Positions 1-7,227 of a DNA stretch of 7,227 nucleotides are shown piece after piece. Below the pieces are notes generated by a model, which saw only the letters and a list, made by a program, of their open reading frames with translations, ran no database searches and was not told where the DNA came from. The number at the start of each line of letters is the position of its first letter. The stretch's first letter is position 1. Source of the stretch: Nanobdellota archaeon (GTDB taxonomy: Archaea; Nanobdellota; Nanobdellia; Nanobdellales; Nanobdellaceae); the NCBI GenBank assembly GCA_020697515.1, contig JAIXNB010000032.1, forward strand, positions 1 through 7,227, written 5' to 3'. The translations under genes were made by a program, and so were the position numbers.

Positions 1-1033
1 AACCAATATCACAAACTACTGTACAGGTTTCGCCTGGTTCACATATATTGTTATTATTATTATCATCATTTATTGTACATGTTCTAGATCCTACATTAGT
101 ATTATTATAGACGTTGATAATACCGATTTCTACTCTATAAATGGTCCTATCGGAAATTGGATATACATCAAATTCCATTTCTGTTGTATAACCATATAAT
201 ATCTGCTTGATATTATCCTTCCTCAAATATGTTATAATATCTGCTTTTACACCACCTACGTCTTCACCTGAATTATCATCATCCATATCAAACCCTATTG
301 CTAGGTAATTACGAGTTTCACTTTTATCAATATCACAAACTACTGTACAGGTTTCGCCTGGTTCACATATATTGTTATTATTATTATCATCATTTATTGT
401 ACACTGAGAACCTCCGACAACATCATTAAAATTCTTATCATTTGTCCAGATAACACCTACCCCATAAATATGTTCACTGGGTCCAAGCGTTATTTTAAAT
501 TTTAGTTCTACAGAACTATCTCTTAATTTTTGAAGGATACTTTCTTTTTTCCAATAATAGATTTTATCTGCTCCTATATCACCCACCTTAGTCCCAGTGT
601 CAGTACCATCCATATCAAACCCTACCACTAGATACCATCCGGGTCCCCTGTGGGGGGCAGTTCCTAAATCAATATCACAAACTACTGTACAGGTTTCGCC
701 TGGTTCACATATATTGTTATTATTATCATTTATTGTACATGTTCGTTCTTCCATAAAATCTGTGGCGTCATTAAACCCATAACCAGTGTACCAAGCAATA
801 TCTACTCCATGAATAGTTTCACCGGGACCTGGGGTTATTTTGAATGTTAATCTATGATAATCCTCCCCAATCCATGCTACTTCTCTGCTATTATCCCAAT
901 AGTGCTCTAGAACTACATCTGAAATACTTAAAGCACACACACCATTTGCTGATAATACTACAATGGCGAGGATACCTAATAGCAAAAAATTGCTTATTGA
1001 CATATTAATAGCTTTTATCAGTTTTTTCTCCAT
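1..1033 (-). CDS. Secreted/surface repeat protein, N-terminal 344 codons (C-terminus runs off the window start): signal peptide plus at least 3 tandem ~108-114-aa modules, each with a 4-Cys cassette
   Basis: Absent from the supplied track because there is no stop in the window. My hand translation of the minus strand from ATG 1033..1031 stays open to position 2. N-terminus MEKKLIKAINMSISNFLLLGILAIVVLSANGVCA/LSISD has a hydrophobic core and a V-x-A cleavage-like site. An alternative in-frame ATG lies at 1003..1001. Recurrent motifs are (K/T)FKIT.GP.E.I.GV, CTIND(D)N4-5ICEPGETCTVVCDI and GFDMD(D/G). A TATA-like octamer sits at -30..-23. Confidence 0.75.
   Translation of the reverse strand, partial: MEKKLIKAINMSISNFLLLGILAIVVLSANGVCALSISDVVLEHYWDNSREVAWIGEDYHRLTFKITPGPGETIHGVDIAWYTGYGFNDATDFMEERTCTINDNNNNICEPGETCTVVCDIDLGTAPHRGPGWYLVVGFDMDGTDTGTKVGDIGADKIYYWKKESILQKLRDSSVELKFKITLGPSEHIYGVGVIWTNDKNFNDVVGGSQCTINDDNNNNNICEPGETCTVVCDIDKSETRNYLAIGFDMDDDNSGEDVGGVKADIITYLRKDNIKQILYGYTTEMEFDVYPISDRTIYRVEIGIINVYNNTNVGSRTCTINDDNNNNNICEPGETCTVVCDIG
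4..79. repeat. 76-bp direct repeat, copy 1 (encodes CTINDDNNNNNICEPGETCTVVCDI on the minus strand)
   Basis: caatatcacaaactactgtacaggtttcgcctggttcacatatattgttattattattatcatcatttattgtaca is identical base for base to 328..403 by my comparison. Confidence 0.95.
328..403. repeat. 76-bp direct repeat, copy 2
   Basis: Identical to 4..79. The start-to-start offset of 324 bp equals 108 codons, so it is in frame. Confidence 0.95.
670..739. repeat. 70-bp direct repeat, copy 3 (same unit with a 6-nt in-frame deletion in the TAT/CAT triplet run)
   Basis: The first 57 nt and last 13 nt are identical to the other copies, and tatcat is missing, giving INDNNNNIC instead of INDDNNNNNIC. The offset from copy 2 is 342 bp, or 114 codons. 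Confidence 0.95.
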
Positions 1034-1055
1034 AAATATGCTAATCAATACCTCG

Positions 1056-1063
1056 TTTATAAA
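1056..1063 (-). promoter_or_regulatory. Archaeal TATA/box-A candidate for the surface-protein gene (leaderless mRNA implied)
   Basis: The minus strand reads TTTATAAA exactly at -30..-23 relative to the A of ATG 1033. Confidence 0.4.
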
Positions 1064-1115
1064 AGTTATTTTTACCACTCTATCATAAGTGCATAGGAAT
1101 CATCTATCTAGATAA

Positions 1116-1199
1116 CGCCGCGGGCGGGATTCGAACCCGCGCCCCCTTACGGGGAACGGATTAGCAATCCGTCCCCTTGGGCCGCTCGGGCACCGCGGC
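1116..1199 (-). tRNA. tRNA-Ser(GCU): tRNA-Ser (anticodon GCU), class II, 84 nt, no intron, no encoded CCA
   Basis: Minus strand, folded by hand: GCCGCGG UG CCC GAGCGGCCCAA GGG G ACGGA UUGCUAA UCCGU UCCCCGUAAGGGGGC GCGGG UUCGAAU CCCGC CCGCGGC G. It has a 7-bp all-G:C acceptor stem, a 3-bp D stem, a long variable arm (CCCC/GGGG), a GTTCGAATC T-loop, A37 and discriminator G73. Confidence 0.93.
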
Positions 1200-1203
1200 A
1201 ATG

Positions 1204-1287
1204 TGCGGGGGCGGGGATTCGAACCCCGGACGGCCCTTAGCCACCGGGACCTAAACCCGGCCCCTTTGACCGCTCGGGCACCCCCGC
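1204..1287 (-). tRNA. tRNA-Leu(UAG): tRNA-Leu (anticodon UAG), class II, 84 nt, no intron, no encoded CCA
   Basis: Minus strand: GCGGGGG UG CCC GAGCGGUCAAA GGG G CCGGG UUUAGGU CCCGG UGGCUAAGGGCCGUC CGGGG UUCGAAU CCCCG CCCCCGC A. All stems pair, with G37, discriminator A73 and a long variable arm. It lies 4 nt (CAUU) upstream of tRNA-Ser on the same strand. Confidence 0.93.
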
Positions 1288-1312
1288 AATAACTAATTAT
1301 TTTGAATGGAAC

Positions 1313-1322
1313 TATTTAAAAT
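1313..1322. promoter_or_regulatory. Shared, near-symmetric TATA element between the divergent tRNA operon (-) and the DHH gene (+)
   Basis: The plus strand reads TATTTAAAAT, with TTTAAAAT at 1315..1322, which is -30..-23 of ATG 1345. The minus strand reads TTTTAAATA at -34..-26 of the tRNA-Leu 5' end (1287). It is the only TATA-like element in the 57-bp spacer. Confidence 0.45.
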
Positions 1323-1344
1323 TAACTAAAGATCCTATCTTACA

Positions 1345-2385
1345 ATGATCTACAAAAAAATTGCAAACACCATAAAGAAAATTGATAATGCATTAGTTGT
1401 TACAGATAATGATCCGGATGGTATTTCTGCAGCAATTTTAATGAAAGTGATACTAAACAGGTTGGGTAAAGAGTACGGTATAGTGGTTAGAGATCATAGG
1501 AAGTTAGATAATTTAAGGGACATCATTAAAAATCATTCATCTTACAGTTCATATATTTTCTTAGACTCACCCTTTCCAGACAAGGATCTAATAGAAATGG
1601 CAACAAATTATAAGGATAGAGTATTTATTTATATAGATCATCATAAAAGAGCGATTCCAGAAGAATTACCAGAAAATCTGAAATATTATGATATACGTGC
1701 TTTAGGAATGGAAATAGGATCTACCGCTGGTATAGCTTATAAAGTAGGAAAAACTTTATTTAAAAATGATTTCAAAAGATATTCGATAATAGCAATGATT
1801 GGGGCGATTGGTGATTGGATGGTTGATGAAGACATATTGGAAGATTTTAATTCTGAATACAAAAATAGATTTGTTCAAAATAAAATATTTCTTTATCCCA
1901 CCTTTATTCTATTCAATACTTTCTTATTCGGTAACAGTAAAGAGCTTGTGGAAAATGGAGAGCTATTGATAGATAATCCTTATGCATTTTTTAGTAGTAT
2001 AGATTATGATTTTATTTCTAAGAGGATTAAATCTTTCTATAAAAAAATTGCCAATTTAGAGAAGATATATGAAAGTGAAAAATTACTAGTTTTTAAATCT
2101 AAGGGTACTATATCTATAATCGCGTCATTTATTCATGTATTATATCCAAGTAAAATACTGATAATAGTATCAAATACTGCTGATAACTTTTTAGAAAAAA
2201 TATTCCCAAGAAAATATAAGGTATCTGTTAGATGTAGTTTGGAAAAAATGGATGTAGGAAAACTTATGAGTGAGTTCACAAGCAGATATGGGATATATGG
2301 AGGAGGTCACCCAGCAGCCGCGGGAGGGAAGATTTGGATAAAAGATTTAGGAAAGTTAATAGAATTTTTGGAAAGCAGAATATGA
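1345..2385 (+). CDS. DHH/DHHA1-family phosphoesterase (archaeal RecJ/Cdc45-GAN-like or NrnA-like nuclease/phosphatase), 346 aa
   Basis: The DHH motifs are all present: VVTDNDPDGISAA (motifs I/II), YIDHHKR (DHH at 1636..1644), GAIGDW (motif IV) and the DHHA1 signature GGGHPAAAGG near the C-terminus. The stop TGA 2383..2385 overlaps the next ATG. Confidence 0.85.
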   Translation: MIYKKIANTIKKIDNALVVTDNDPDGISAAILMKVILNRLGKEYGIVVRDHRKLDNLRDIIKNHSSYSSYIFLDSPFPDKDLIEMATNYKDRVFIYIDHHKRAIPEELPENLKYYDIRALGMEIGSTAGIAYKVGKTLFKNDFKRYSIIAMIGAIGDWMVDEDILEDFNSEYKNRFVQNKIFLYPTFILFNTFLFGNSKELVENGELLIDNPYAFFSSIDYDFISKRIKSFYKKIANLEKIYESEKLLVFKSKGTISIIASFIHVLYPSKILIIVSNTADNFLEKIFPRKYKVSVRCSLEKMDVGKLMSEFTSRYGIYGGGHPAAAGGKIWIKDLGKLIEFLESRI

Positions 2386-4166
2386 GGCAAATAAAATTTT
2401 ATCAAGCACTCCTAATATTTGTAAGTGCTATTGCAGGTACAGGTATATTTTTTACCCCGATAATATTGACTAAACATACCAATCTAGTTATATACCAAAT
2501 TTATCTATGGATCTTTATTGGAATATTATTTGTACTATTTTCCGTGGTTTTTGCAAATATGATATACATACTTCCTAAAAAAGGAGGAATCTATGACTAT
2601 GTTAAACACCTCAATAAACATATAGGATTCTTAGCGGGATGGTTAGAATACTTCTCCATTGTAATAGTTTCTGCATTTCTTCTGAATTTATCTCTAACTA
2701 CTCTATCTCAGTTTTTTAGTATTAATACAATTATAGTTAGCATACTACTTATTTCGTTTTTCACAATTTTAATTCTCCTTGGTGCCAGAATAAGTTTGAA
2801 TGTTCTTACAGCATTCGGACTATTTACTCTGATCACTTTTATATCAGTATTTTTTTATAGCATTTTTTCTTTAATCCATATAGACTTCTCTAGGTTGTAC
2901 ATAAACCAAGAGGAACATTGGATATTATACTTGCCTATAATGATAGCTGCTATATTCGAGACTTATGCGGGTATAGAGATATTAGGATACTTTGCAAATA
3001 GAGATAATGCGAGGAAATTATCAAAAGCTACAATTTTTGGATCAATAGTACTCTATATACTATATATATTCCTAACCGCTTTTATGATAATTTGTTCCTA
3101 TTACTTTAGAGAATTTTATGAGCTATCATTTATCGGAAAGGTTCTATTATTGTTAGTAAGTCTGCAGATGTTTGGAACAATATTCGCATGGATGACTAGT
3201 GCCCCAAATTTATTATATAGAATGGCGGAGGATGAAAACCTTCCCTCAATATTTAAACGGATTAATAAGTACAGAGTACCGTCCTTATCCGTATTGCTAA
3301 CAGGGTTACTAATTTTATTTTTCTTTTTAACAGGGGCTTTCGAGTCTTTAATAAAATATTATTTTATATCAATAATAACAATATACTCCTTAGTTTCTTT
3401 TACGTACTTAAAGCTATCCAACACCAAAAAGCCGTTTTTACCTAAAAGGATATCAAAACTCTGCGCGGTTCTATCAATTATTCTATCAATACTTCTATTA
3501 ACACTGTATAGCAAGGAAGCTATCTATCTAACTCCTTTATTAATCGTAGGTTTATCTTTTTATATTGCTAAAGAAATTCAGAGGAATAAAATCCTTATAA
3601 GGGTGTTCCATGAAATATTCTCTCCAATTATAGACAAATTTTGGGTATTATTCACTAAAGATGACATAAGAATTATCGAAAGGTTAGTAGGGGATCTAAA
3701 TAACAAAATAATACTAGATTTTGGGGCATCTACTGGTCCAATTAGTATATATCTTGCGGAGAGATATAATTGTATTGTATACTCCTCTGAAATATCCAAA
3801 CATGCATTAAAAATCCTGAAGAAAAAAATACAGAAAAAGAAAATTACAAATATTATACCCATCCTAGATGAACCTGATAGGATTTTTGAGAAGTTTGAGG
3901 AATTCTTTGATATTGTAATAGCATATAACACTTTATCATTTCTAAAAGAGAGAGATTTGTTTTTCAGAGATCTTTATAGAGCTTTGAAACCTGGAGGAGT
4001 TTTTGTTGCAATAGTTTATGATAACATTTTCAAAATATTCGAGGCTCCGAGTTGGATCAAAGATATTGACATCATTTTGTCAAGATATGGGTTTGAGGCA
4101 GTAGTTATTAAAGAAAAACACATAATGTGGGATAAGATTATTATTTTTGCTAAGAAAATCAGATGA
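2382..4166 (+). CDS. APC-superfamily amino-acid/polyamine-type permease (12 predicted TM helices) fused to a C-terminal class-I SAM-dependent methyltransferase domain, 594 aa from ATG 2382
   Basis: The track ORF begins at 2334 inside the DHH gene. I prefer the in-frame ATG 2382, which forms ATGA with the upstream stop and immediately precedes TM1. Permease motifs are AIAGTGIFFTP, PKKGGIYDYV, ETYAGIE and YRMAEDENLPSIFKRINKYRVP, with 12 hydrophobic segments counted by eye. The reading frame continues without a stop into the MTase motifs. Confidence 0.85.
   Translation: MRQIKFYQALLIFVSAIAGTGIFFTPIILTKHTNLVIYQIYLWIFIGILFVLFSVVFANMIYILPKKGGIYDYVKHLNKHIGFLAGWLEYFSIVIVSAFLLNLSLTTLSQFFSINTIIVSILLISFFTILILLGARISLNVLTAFGLFTLITFISVFFYSIFSLIHIDFSRLYINQEEHWILYLPIMIAAIFETYAGIEILGYFANRDNARKLSKATIFGSIVLYILYIFLTAFMIICSYYFREFYELSFIGKVLLLLVSLQMFGTIFAWMTSAPNLLYRMAEDENLPSIFKRINKYRVPSLSVLLTGLLILFFFLTGAFESLIKYYFISIITIYSLVSFTYLKLSNTKKPFLPKRISKLCAVLSIILSILLLTLYSKEAIYLTPLLIVGLSFYIAKEIQRNKILIRVFHEIFSPIIDKFWVLFTKDDIRIIERLVGDLNNKIILDFGASTGPISIYLAERYNCIVYSSEISKHALKILKKKIQKKKITNIIPILDEPDRIFEKFEEFFDIVIAYNTLSFLKERDLFFRDLYRALKPGGVFVAIVYDNIFKIFEAPSWIKDIDIILSRYGFEAVVIKEKHIMWDKIIIFAKKIR
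3580..4163 (+). other. Methyltransferase domain of the fusion protein (Methyltransf_11/25-like)
   Basis: Motif I is ILDFGASTG (3711..3737). Also present are the acidic post-I residue in VYSSEIS, FDIVIAYNTL and the LKPGGVFVAIV motif. There is no in-frame Met between TM12 and motif I. Confidence 0.7.
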
Positions 4167-4208
4167 GAGCGAGGCTCTTCATTGATCAAGGCCCCGAATC
4201 CTCATCAC
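4159..4208 (-). ncRNA. Candidate archaeal C/D-box sRNA (2'-O-methylation guide)
   Basis: Minus strand: C box GUGAUGA (4208..4202), 12-nt guide GGAUUCGGGGCC, D' UUGA (4189..4186), loop UCA, C' AUGAAGA (4182..4176), 13-nt guide GCCUCGCUCUCAU, D box CUGA (4162..4159), followed by UUUUCUU. It sits in the only GC-enriched intergenic patch. AA/UU could close a short terminal stem. A weak TATA-like CATATAAG lies ~25 nt upstream of the C box. The D-guide end overlaps the stop codon of the permease gene in antisense. Confidence 0.6.
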
Positions 4209-4216
4209 TTATAATT
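4209..4216 (+). promoter_or_regulatory. TATA/box-A candidate for the PP-loop/NFACT operon (leaderless mRNA implied)
   Basis: TTATAATT lies exactly at -30..-23 relative to the A of ATG 4239. Confidence 0.4.
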
Positions 4217-4226
4217 TTTTGTTTTT
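4215..4226 (+). terminator. Oligo-T tracts (T6 G T5), candidate archaeal terminator for the DHH-permease transcription unit
   Basis: ttttttgttttt lies ~50 nt after stop 4166. Archaeal RNA polymerase terminates at oligo-T runs. The tract overlaps the next promoter. Confidence 0.35.
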
Positions 4227-4238
4227 CAGAAAGCTTAT

Positions 4239-5486
4239 ATGCAAATATACGTTAGGGCAAGAAAAGATAAAGCCCTTTTGGACTATGTAAATGAGAAGGT
4301 ATATAATAGTTCGCTTACAATTAAAACATTTTGTGGAAAAAGGAAAGAAGAATTAATAGAGGAGATAAAACATCTGAAAAACAATCCCAAGGATTTTACA
4401 ATAGTTCTTCTTGGAAACGAAGATCGAAAATGGATAGATGAGGATATATCAGATGCTGTTACCAAGCTATATTTTGTTTCTAAGAAAAAAGTCAGAAATA
4501 CAAAGCCTAAAGCAATAGTTAAAGAAATAGAGATGGCAAAATCAAGATTTATTTTGGATATAGTGCTTGTAGAAGATTACTATAGATTAGGCAAAATGAG
4601 TAATTTCCTAAGGGAATTGATACCAGGATCAGACATATATTTGATATATTACAGTAATTACAAGGAAGTGCTCTCTAACTTCATAGAAATAAACAACTAC
4701 CCACTAGTATGGCATGTTAGAGACATAGACTATATATACTCGGCGGATAAGCTTATCGGAAAGATATTTAGGCCTCTAGACGGATTACTAAAATTTGTAA
4801 AATTAGGAAATGAAATAATAAATATTAATCTAGATAGAACTATCAAACATAATTTAGATTACATAAAAAGAAAAGAGAGGATGACTGTAGAAAAAATAAG
4901 GTTCTTGATGAATAAAATAGAGTTTGATAGAGTTATAGTTCCATGGTCTGGTGGTAAAGATTCTACATTACTTGTTACTCTACTGAAGAAACATAAAATA
5001 GAGTTTACACCTATATATGTAGATACTGGGTTAGAATTCGATGAGTCTAAAAAGTATATAGATAAAATTGCTAAAAGACTTGGTATAAAATATGAAACAG
5101 TATATGCAGAAATAGATAAAGCTCTGCGAAGTAATTCTTACGACCTCTTATTAGGCAGAAAATGTACTTTACTAAAAATATCCAACTTATACAAAAAAAT
5201 AGAAGAGATTGCAGAGAATCCCTTAATTATAAATGGAGATAGAATATCAGAATCTGAAAGTAGAAGTTTTAGACCCGAGCTAAGGAAAGATACTTTCTGG
5301 GTGCTTAGTCCTATAAAATACTGGTCATATTTGGACGAACAACTCTATTTTATTACAAACAATATTCCAGTAAATCCACTATATGAACTAGGTTTTTATA
5401 GAGTGGGTTGTTGGGTTTGTCCTTTTATAGATGTTTTTGAAAAATTTTTACTAAAAGAAACAAAATATGCAGATAAATTTCTATGA
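4239..5486 (+). CDS. PAPS-reductase-family PP-loop ATP pyrophosphatase domain (aa ~205-415) with an unrecognised ~200-aa N-terminal domain
   Basis: Motifs are VIVPWSGGKDSTLLV (SGGKDS at 4947..4964), PIYVDTGLEFDES, RKCTLLK, INGDRISESESR, SPIKYWS, NPLYELGFYRVGCWVCPF. This is colinear with the PF01507-type family (CysH/APS reductase/DndC). I recognise no family motif in aa 1-200. Confidence 0.85.
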   Translation: MQIYVRARKDKALLDYVNEKVYNSSLTIKTFCGKRKEELIEEIKHLKNNPKDFTIVLLGNEDRKWIDEDISDAVTKLYFVSKKKVRNTKPKAIVKEIEMAKSRFILDIVLVEDYYRLGKMSNFLRELIPGSDIYLIYYSNYKEVLSNFIEINNYPLVWHVRDIDYIYSADKLIGKIFRPLDGLLKFVKLGNEIININLDRTIKHNLDYIKRKERMTVEKIRFLMNKIEFDRVIVPWSGGKDSTLLVTLLKKHKIEFTPIYVDTGLEFDESKKYIDKIAKRLGIKYETVYAEIDKALRSNSYDLLLGRKCTLLKISNLYKKIEEIAENPLIINGDRISESESRSFRPELRKDTFWVLSPIKYWSYLDEQLYFITNNIPVNPLYELGFYRVGCWVCPFIDVFEKFLLKETKYADKFL

Positions 5487-6486
5487 GCTGCTGAAATGGC
5501 TGAGAGAGAACAAGAAAAAAATAAATAATACTTTAATAAAAAAAATTTACAAAACTTACAGAAATGGAATAATATTGGAACTTTTTAAGCCAGGTTTATC
5601 TAAAAAATATTTGTATTTAATCCCTGGTTTAGCTGTTTTTCTATCAGACAAAAAGATTAGTTTGCCTGCAGATAACTTTGTAATGCGTCTAAGAAAAGAT
5701 TTTGATGGCAAGAGAATCGAAATAGATATATATGATAATGAACGAATAGTTGTCGTTCGATCTAACGACAATAAGAAAATTTTTGTCGAACTGTTTCCGC
5801 CTGGTAACATAGTCGTCGTGGATGATAACGACACTATACAATATGCTTTGTTACAAAGAAATTTTGGAATAAGGAAAATAAGAAGAGGAGAAAAATATAT
5901 TCCACCACCAAGTAACTTTAAAATTCCAAATAACTTTGAGGAATTCAAGGAAATAATAGTAAATTCTAAAAGAAAAGATATTGTTAGGGCATTGGCAATT
6001 GATTTAAGGTTGGGAGGAAAATATGCTGAATTCTTGCTGGGTAAATTAAAGATAGATAAAAATAAAAAGCCTAAAGATTTATCTAATAGTGAGTTAGAAA
6101 TGTTATGGGTTGCATATAAGTCTTTCTTAACTAATAATAAAATTTATTATGACGGGTGGTCTAGAGACATTAATGAATCTATAGAAAAATATTATCTAAA
6201 GTATTTGGAAGAGGAAAGTTTAATTAAACTGAAGGAAAAAAAAGAAAAACTAGAAAACATATTAAAAACTCAATTAGAAAGTAAGTACAGATTACAGAGA
6301 GAGATAGAGAGATTACAGAAAATTGGCAACTTTTTAATGATTTATTCTTGGATTTTTGAGGAATACAACCCAAAGAATATTAAAAAAGAATTTGAAAAAT
6401 TAGGGGTAAAATTAGAAGTAAAAGATGATGGACCAAAATTAAAAATTAATATACGGGAGGAGGATTTAGAGAAACTTATAAGCTGA
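5467..6486 (+). CDS. NFACT-N domain protein (archaeal Rqc2/NEMF/RqcH, 'FbpA'-like ribosome quality-control factor), short form of 339 aa lacking NFACT-R/DUF814
   Basis: FVMRLRKDFDGKRIEIDIYDNERIVVV...IFVELFPPGNIVVVDDNDTI...RRGEKYIPPP is colinear with the RqcH segment FCMLLRKHIEG..IEKIEQ..LDRI...YVEI.G..SNIILTD...G.DYKLPP as I recall it. It is followed by an HhH-like segment (DIVRALAIDLRLGGKYAEFLL) and a coiled-coil segment (LKEKKEKLENILKTQLESKYRLQREIERLQ). The start overlaps the upstream gene by 20 nt. Confidence 0.8.
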   Translation: MQINFYELLKWLRENKKKINNTLIKKIYKTYRNGIILELFKPGLSKKYLYLIPGLAVFLSDKKISLPADNFVMRLRKDFDGKRIEIDIYDNERIVVVRSNDNKKIFVELFPPGNIVVVDDNDTIQYALLQRNFGIRKIRRGEKYIPPPSNFKIPNNFEEFKEIIVNSKRKDIVRALAIDLRLGGKYAEFLLGKLKIDKNKKPKDLSNSELEMLWVAYKSFLTNNKIYYDGWSRDINESIEKYYLKYLEEESLIKLKEKKEKLENILKTQLESKYRLQREIERLQKIGNFLMIYSWIFEEYNPKNIKKEFEKLGVKLEVKDDGPKLKINIREEDLEKLIS

Positions 6487-6489
6487 TCT

Positions 6490-7227
<738 letters not shown>

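Follow-up and report, generated by a model that had tools for sequence, protein, structure and literature searches.

A conserved DPANN family of permease-methyltransferase fusions with a possible role in coupling solute uptake to methylation

The window analyzed in this work, a 7,227-nucleotide stretch of DNA from a Nanobdellota archaeon (contig JAIXNB010000032.1, positions 1 to 7,227; G+C content about 30%), contains a gene in which a permease of the APC type with 12 transmembrane (TM) segments continues, within one open reading frame (ORF), into a class I methyltransferase (MTase) domain. This permease-MTase fusion is a widespread and conserved DPANN family that lacks a functional characterization in the literature searched. 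As to its role, the reading that we tentatively favor, and that we would place a little short of probable, is that a cationic amino acid or amine is taken up or exchanged and that this transport is coupled to the methylation of the solute, the substrate and the activity being deduced from conserved residues and structural models. The features of the fused gene are as follows.

2382..4166, + strand: fused permease-MTase gene, 594 codons plus stop (ORF list and Pfam)
2382..3581, + strand: permease domain, residues 1-400, 12 TM segments, APC/LeuT-type fold
2436..2444, + strand: TM1 motif G19-T20-G21, which aligns with G25-S26-G27 in the unwound TM1 of AdiC
2958..2978, + strand: TM6 segment E193-T-Y-A-G197-I-E199, from the HMMER alignment to AdiC
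3588..3689, + strand: cytoplasmic linker helix, residues 403-436 (34 residues), from the AlphaFold secondary structure
3705..4163, + strand: class I MTase core, residues 442-594, seven beta strands in Rossmann-like order
3711..3737, + strand: motif I, ILDFGASTG, residues 444-452, S-adenosylmethionine (SAM)-binding loop
3789..3791, + strand: E470, the acidic residue that ends beta-2
3909..3941, + strand: beta-4 and the following loop, D510-IVIAYNTLSF-520
4014..4016, + strand: V545, just after beta-5, a position that is acidic in the family

The fused gene and its family

An earlier, sequence-only reading of the window had described a single ORF running from permease motifs into a class I MTase. 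In agreement with this description, Pfam searches placed both domains in the 594-residue ORF, with AA_permease_2 matching residues 5-373 (E=8.6e-23; 81.4 bits vs. a cutoff of 27) and Methyltransf_11 matching residues 445-542 (E=5.8e-13; 49.7 bits vs. a cutoff of 21.2); AA_permease (48.1 bits vs. a cutoff of 24.6) and Methyltransf_25, _12, _31, and _23 were also above their cutoffs. Motif I lies exactly at the coordinates that had been given for it, and the linker indeed contains no in-frame Met, since none occurs between residues 396 and 445; a GTG at codon 408 is the sole other in-frame start codon in this segment. The ORF itself starts with the ATG at 2382, and a TTG is found further upstream at 2334.

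A missed stop codon or a frameshift between TM12 and motif I, which would turn two neighboring genes into an apparent fusion, was checked by comparison with related loci. The orthologue encoded in an independent ENA contig of 4650 bp (L001) is 86% identical to the window protein, also has 594 residues, and aligns with zero indels. The proportion of synonymous differences (pS) for this gene pair was 0.53-0.62, i.e. synonymous sites are near saturation, and the ratios of nonsynonymous to synonymous divergence (dN/dS) were 0.047 (permease), 0.129 (linker), and 0.081 (MTase). These low values indicate that the three segments are all kept by selection as one reading frame. Moreover, 93 fused single ORFs from independent metagenomes were present in the loci examined. 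The sole locus that appeared to be split, L030, where a separate permease gene and MTase gene had been called, speaks for an artefact only at first sight, because its break (1636..1730) corresponds to a +1 shift of the frame within an A8 homopolymer, with the conserved linker carried on in the shifted ORF; judged from its sequence, this break stems from a sequencing error or from recent pseudogene formation. Taken together, the independent indel-free orthologue, a pS of about 0.6, and the 93 fused ORFs exclude an artefact, whose probability we consider practically nil, and the fusion is a genuine gene rather than a product of assembly or sequencing.

An exhaustive HMMER search over 1.84 billion cluster representatives gave 1443 matches, the top ones extending from end to end, and both half-profiles, permease and MTase, were matched by 77 proteins that represent about 69 distinct clusters at 50% identity. 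The window protein shares 86% identity with P0002, 37% with P0006, 39% with P0007, and 33% with P0008. Among 53 aligned members, 50 matched AA_permease_2 and 48-50 matched Methyltransf families. When metagenomes were scanned with a sub-family alignment, at least 561 relatives were recovered, and the best 80 of these at least 561 were all full length. The conservation counts given below refer to 138 distinct sequences and are weighted to the largest sub-family, which contributes 80 loci from one scan.

The scan of the GTDB species set, carried out with a 6-sequence alignment and patterns from the clade of the window, found full-length matches in one Woesearchaeota metagenome-assembled genome (MAG) and one Nanoarchaeia MAG. 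The named sources of the family are Aenigmarchaeota, Woesearchaeota, Nanopusillaceae, or simply "archaeon," and every organism-named member is a DPANN archaeon. Hence, the family looks confined to DPANN archaea, with members elsewhere possible given that the GTDB scan was patterned on the clade of the window. The only product names attached to these proteins are "hypothetical protein," "amino acid permease," and "methyltransferase domain-containing protein." A full-text literature search found no description of a permease-MTase fusion, and a systematic survey of archaeal fusion proteins does not describe one in its main text. The earlier view that the architecture is not a characterized one therefore stands as far as the literature searched is concerned, but the protein is not a one-off, as it belongs to a large DPANN family.

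Fused and separate orthologues were also compared, and a genuine split permease/MTase pair, which would constitute Rosetta-stone evidence that the two functions are coupled, was not found among the loci examined. A word-indexed homologue search gave no matches with the MTase part alone and only unfused permeases with the 53-sequence alignment. Two candidate stand-alone MTases were rejected, P0077 as a chimera whose contig (L027, about 110..170) carries an Illumina adapter (AATGATACGGCGACCACCGAGATCTACACTCTTTCCCTACACGACGCTCTTCCGATCT) joined to an MTase-domain fragment, and P0138 as uninformative on a 706-bp contig. Only P0091, with 195 residues and encoded in a 285-kb contig (L028, 5001..5588), appears to be a genuine free-standing MTase module. 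Its gene lies beside the S7/S12 ribosomal genes, the same surroundings as those of the fused gene in L003 (5992..7881, a Nanoarchaeia genome), so it may be the remnant of a fused gene, and this suggests that the permease half was lost secondarily. At the other extreme of length, P0022, P0028, P0039, and P0048 (827-858 residues) have about 200 additional residues after the MTase, with a DUF3108 match at residues 674-787 of P0028.

The permease, the linker helix, and the methyltransferase

The permease half shows 12 Kyte-Doolittle hydrophobic peaks, the last of which ends at about residue 399 (nucleotide 3578), and its AlphaFold model consists of twelve long helices with breaks at residues 19-24 and 195-197. 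The loops contain 24 Lys and Arg residues on the predicted inside vs. 4 on the outside, a positive-inside bias that places both termini, and hence the MTase, in the cytoplasm, as had been expected from an N-in topology with an even number of TM segments. Sequence matches of this half in the PDB were xCT, AdiC, LAT2, and BasC, and Foldseek searches with the whole model gave TM-scores (normalized to target) of 0.71-0.78 to LAT1, Asc-1, BasC, and AdiC. None of the NCBIfam subfamily cutoffs was reached by the permease; the family of basic amino acid/polyamine antiporters (APA, TIGR00905) scored only 68.4 bits vs. a cutoff of 409.

The substrate-site signatures of the APC fold are conserved in the family. 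In the TM1 motif, which we take from the published AdiC structures to bind the alpha-carboxylate of the substrate (G-[ST]-G), G19, T20, and G21 are present in 128, 116, and 123 of the 138 sequences, respectively. In TM6, E193 (127/138) corresponds to the gate residue W202 of AdiC, whereas G197 (134/138) and E199 (130/138) are the counterparts of G206 and E208. Other strongly conserved permease residues are G68 (134/138), G69 (135/138), and P300 (136/138). The near-invariant Glu at the TM6 gate position suggests that the ligand of the permease is cationic and alpha-amino-acid-like.

The helix of TM12 (residues 378-401) is followed, after a gap of one residue, by the linker helix, which leads into the MTase core, and the length of this junction is fixed throughout the family. 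In every fused member, no more than 1-6 residues separate the match to the permease profile from that to the MTase profile, which leaves no flexible spacer. The full-chain AlphaFold2 model, built from the 53-sequence alignment, had a mean predicted local distance difference test score (pLDDT) of 92.8, a predicted TM-score (pTM) of 0.89, and no segment below a pLDDT of 50; the MTase domain modeled alone (pLDDT 93.2) agreed with the full-chain model. Because these values hold for the whole chain, the model points to two domains held in a confidently fixed, rigid arrangement.

In the MTase half, the predicted strands comprise residues 443-447, 465-470, 491-495, 509-515, 535-547, 571-579, and 584-592. 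Foldseek searches with this domain returned many class I MTases at a probability of 1.00, the neighbors including nematode and plant phosphoethanolamine N-methyltransferases (PMT-2), Aquifex 3dh0, UbiG, Coq5, TleD, Bud23, and bacterial PmtA. When the family profile was compared with PDB sequences, AtPMT2 was matched at 9.5e-27 over the Rossmann core only (profile positions 34-166 to residues 270-398). A full-length match to the phosphoethanolamine N-methyltransferases that included their substrate-binding cap and catalytic residues was not obtained, the TM-score normalized to target being 0.31-0.36, and no specific MTase subfamily emerged from the profile searches of NCBIfam and the PDB.

The SAM-binding elements are well conserved, with G448 in 131 and G452 in 133 of the 138 sequences, D510 in 119, and D or E at position 470 in 127; in class I MTases, the acid that ends beta-2 binds the ribose hydroxyls of SAM. 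The Ser of GASTG had been taken as a sign of doubtful catalysis. This claim did not survive the comparison with the family, since Ser is the commonest residue at position 450 (81/138, vs. Gly in 35/138 and Asn in 7/138), which makes GASTG the family norm and not a defect.

Conservation is not limited to the SAM motifs and extends to S514 (122/138), G516 (111/138), Y520 (112/138), D/E545 (119/138; D in 74, E in 45, and V in only 5), Y546 (109/138), F550 (117/138), P554 (116/138), W558 (109/138), F566 (129/138), G570 (133/138), W583 (116/138), and K592 (129/138). We infer that these residues line a substrate pocket, since the loops that follow beta-4 and beta-5 contain many of them. The window protein deviates from the family consensus (S514, G516, Y520, D/E545, P554, and F566) at six of them, where it has A514, N516, F520, V545, E554, and L566. 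Its 86% identical orthologue is off consensus at the same six positions; in the relatives P0007 and P0008, S, G, Y, and E are retained. On that reading, the sub-clade of the window would have a derived putative pocket, intact SAM-binding motifs, and persisting purifying selection, and its specificity or activity may differ from that of the rest of the family. If catalysis by the window protein is to be doubted, the ground for it is thus the six substitutions in the putative pocket and not the Ser of GASTG.

Possible roles of the fusion

According to the reading that we favor, an amino-acid-like cationic solute, such as a basic amino acid or another amine, would enter through the permease, the tethered MTase would methylate it at the cytoplasmic exit, and methylation would either trap the solute in the cell or yield a product that is exchanged back out. 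The compact MTase is placed beneath the cytoplasmic face of the transporter, and the antiport of a precursor and its product together with a cytoplasmic enzyme is typical of APC transporters of the AdiC type. Counted in its favor are the purifying selection on the fused gene, the recurrence of the fusion across the family, and the fixed junction with its confident two-domain model. The permease keeps its APC substrate-site signatures (G-T-G in TM1 and Glu193, G197, and E199 in TM6), and motif I, the acid of beta-2, and D510 are all retained in the MTase. In addition, the conserved residues outside the SAM site, many of them aromatic or acidic (S514, G516, Y520, D/E545, Y546, F550, and W558), would fit a substrate pocket better than a bare SAM sensor, and the nearest neighbors of the domain in sequence and structure are small-molecule, largely N-directed MTases, led by the phosphoethanolamine N-methyltransferases.

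Several observations weigh against coupled uptake and methylation. The NCBIfam equivalog models were all far below their cutoffs and scattered over BioC, MenG/UbiE, UbiG, and ArsM (e.g. 28-31 bits vs. a cutoff of 103 for UbiG). The MTase domain is small and, in the AlphaFold model, has almost no cap or lid beyond the linker helix. The window protein itself carries the six replacements described above, and no operon partner that would point to a pathway is conserved family-wide among the loci examined. Finally, APC-fold transporters with regulatory, non-catalytic cytosolic C-terminal domains, such as KimA and NKCC/NCC, are well known.

This last point leads to the closest rival, in which the MTase fold would act as a regulatory domain that senses SAM or S-adenosylhomocysteine (SAH) and gates or tunes the permease according to methyl-donor status without methylating any solute, e.g. 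by feedback on the uptake of methionine or another amino acid. KimA, whose C-terminal domain binds cyclic di-AMP (c-di-AMP), and NKCC1/NCC, both APC-fold transporters with cytosolic C-terminal domains of a regulatory kind, gave the longer Foldseek alignments of the whole model, APC permeases fused to USP, HD, and signaling domains were met in the homologue search, and SAMTOR shows that an MTase fold can serve to sense SAM. A sensor would also accord with the window protein, which keeps its SAM motifs and has lost six residues outside them and yet evolves with a dN/dS of 0.08 in this domain. Furthermore, a gene encoding a CBS-pair protein of 154-172 residues lies directly downstream of the fusion gene, co-oriented with it and 6-56 nucleotides past its stop, in the mutually divergent loci L032 (6130..6594), L033 (6857..7366; ORF from 6848), and L034 (6859..7326), which belong to different identity clusters. 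CBS-pair domains bind adenosyl ligands, including SAM, and in the proteins in question a hydrophobic insert separates the two CBS motifs. They represent the one suggestive partner of the fusion gene; one further case is convergent, and the window and most loci lack this neighbor. Nevertheless, residues outside the SAM site are family-wide as conserved as the SAM motifs, which is more typical of an enzyme, and the MTase module also exists in the free-standing form P0091. We therefore consider a sensor rather unlikely.

Alternatively, the MTase might be a membrane-tethered enzyme whose target is not cargo of the permease (e.g. a protein, an RNA, a membrane-soluble compound, or a lipid head group), the permease working independently or mainly as an anchor. 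Some structural neighbors of the domain, i.e. UbiG, Coq5, and a bacterial phosphatidylethanolamine N-methyltransferase (8ys9), do act at the membrane surface, Ubie_methyltran was matched by 45 of the 53 members (best E=2.7e-20) and the MenG/UbiE models by 22-23 of 29, and the helix after TM12 would hold the domain beside the membrane according to the model. However, G68, G69, E193, G197, E199, and P300 are each kept in more than 90% of the sequences, and such a strong conservation of the substrate-site motifs argues that the permease functions in transport instead of serving as a mere anchor. The quinone and lipid MTase models were all far below their cutoffs, and, to our knowledge, DPANN archaea are generally thought to be devoid of quinone and lipid biosynthesis. 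An enzyme acting on such a separate target is thus clearly unlikely.

A transport of SAM itself, or an exchange of SAM for SAH, with the Rossmann domain capturing or consuming the imported cofactor, appears still more improbable. SAM is an alpha-amino acid with a cationic center that would fit the TM1 G-T-G motif and the TM6 Glu, yeast Sam3 is a SAM permease of the APC superfamily, and DPANN archaea depend on imported metabolites, but a single tethered MTase would leave the supply of the other methyltransferases of the cell unexplained. An arsenite methyltransferase was dropped as a candidate, since the ArsM matches were sub-threshold, non-specific, and restricted to the Rossmann core.

It is possible rather than probable that the family represents the first transporter-methyltransferase unit, working either by vectorial methylation or as a built-in SAM/SAH sensor that gates amino acid uptake in organisms whose regulatory machinery is minimal. 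Vectorial methylation, if true, would mean that the solute is methylated on leaving the permease, in a trapping similar to group translocation or in a SAM-driven precursor/product exchange. DPANN archaea have tiny genomes and live on host metabolites, whose acquisition and processing are largely obscure, and the fusion protein, which is conserved and abundant, is a defined object for expression and assays. A confirmed role could reveal a new coupling of transport and chemistry (methylation-driven trapping or exchange) or a regulation of transporters by the methyl-donor pool, and the annotations "amino acid permease," "methyltransferase domain-containing protein," and "hypothetical" would be corrected; if the protein proves to be no more than a generic permease with a generic MTase attached, the gain would be mainly a better annotation.

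Gene surroundings and comparison with known systems

The other features of the window, among them archaeal housekeeping genes, are listed below.

1115..1287, - strand: tRNA-Ser(GCT) and tRNA-Leu(TAG), with 2 nucleotides between them
1345..2385, + strand: DHH/DHHA1 (RecJ-like) gene (ORF list and Pfam)
2382..2385, + strand: ATGA start/stop overlap of the fusion gene with the upstream DHH/DHHA1 gene (sequence and ORF coordinates)
4239..5486: 3'-phosphoadenosine 5'-phosphosulfate (PAPS)-reductase-like protein, PRK08576 type
5467..6486, + strand: N-terminal half of archaeal RqcH
6490..7212, - strand: C-terminal part of ABCE1/RLI

The start/stop coupling to the DHH gene that had been noted from the sequence is present, and the 4-nucleotide overlap is kept in the orthologous contig L001, where the neighbor genes are also the same. 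The proposed link to DHH does not extend beyond this close orthologue, as none of the more distant loci examined shows it, and the DHH and PAPS-reductase neighbors are common to the window and its 86% identical orthologue only.

Clustering of 627 flanking ORFs from 89 loci showed mostly a housekeeping gene order in the largest sub-family, with a short Dph2-like gene, DnaG, and ribosomal protein S7. The Dph2-like gene, the commonest neighbor there, is directly upstream and divergent in 19 loci and occurs among the flanking ORFs in 25 loci in total. Its product, a diphthamide-synthesis protein and thus another SAM-using enzyme, has about 232 residues and matches PF01866 over profile positions 91-286 of 302 (e.g. 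L076, 2496..3194, - strand). A functional linkage to the Dph2-like, DnaG, and S7 genes was set aside in favor of inherited gene order. In L025, an Aenigmarchaeota fusion gene is divergently paired with a second, unfused APC permease gene (8650..9903, - strand; 417 residues), which is followed by genes for Tyr/Trp-type and Met-type tRNA synthetases.

As for the rest of the window, the tRNA pair adjoins its G+C-richest part. An ORF that runs off the left edge (1..~1030, - strand) encodes an N-terminal signal/TM segment (MEKKLIKAINMSISNFLLLGILAIVVLSANG) and at least three protein repeats of about 95 residues, each ending in CTINDDNNNN(N)ICEPGETCTVVCDI; no Pfam match was found for this ORF, the repeats are not tandem at the DNA level, and it probably encodes a Cys-rich repeat protein that is secreted or exposed at the surface. 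The RqcH-type gene overlaps the PAPS-reductase-like gene by 20 nucleotides, and its 339-residue ORF matches RqcH_arch over model positions 4-322 of 645 only. Since the convergent ABCE1 gene follows directly, the NFACT-R half must be absent or encoded elsewhere, and a separate NFACT-R protein of 262 residues in L023 suggests that RqcH is split in these archaea.

Several known systems resemble the fusion in part. In KimA and the SLC12 cation-chloride cotransporters, too, a helix after TM12 connects an APC fold to an alpha/beta domain in the cytosol; this C-terminal domain is no MTase and serves c-di-AMP binding or dimerization and phospho-regulation, and the whole-chain root-mean-square deviation of 13-17 Å means that a likeness of domain arrangement is not established. 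SAMTOR, the SAM sensor of the mTORC1 pathway, is a eukaryotic and soluble protein whose likeness to the fusion lies in the use of a class I MTase fold. MprF, which joins a flippase to a lysyl-phosphatidylglycerol synthase, and LplT-Aas show that a membrane transporter can be covalently joined to an enzyme whose substrate is the transported molecule itself, with unrelated folds, substrates, and chemistry and no homology to the fusion.

The closest relatives are those of each half taken separately. With APC transporters such as AdiC, BasC, GkApcT, ApcT, LAT1/SLC7A5, Asc-1, and xCT, the fusion shares the 12-TM fold, the G-[ST]-G motif of TM1, and the G..E signature of TM6, and it differs from them in an identity of only 16-21%, in the Glu that replaces the aromatic gate W202 of AdiC, and in the 195-residue MTase module added after TM12. 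With MTases of the Methyltransf_11/UbiE type (PMT-1/2, UbiG, Coq5, and 3dh0), it shares the seven-stranded fold, motif I, the beta-2 acid, and D510; unlike them, it aligns over the core only, has no substrate-binding cap, is joined to a transporter, and has a motif I that in the family mostly reads G-[CA]-S-x-G. Both halves come from well-known superfamilies, and the architecture is accordingly not categorically new.

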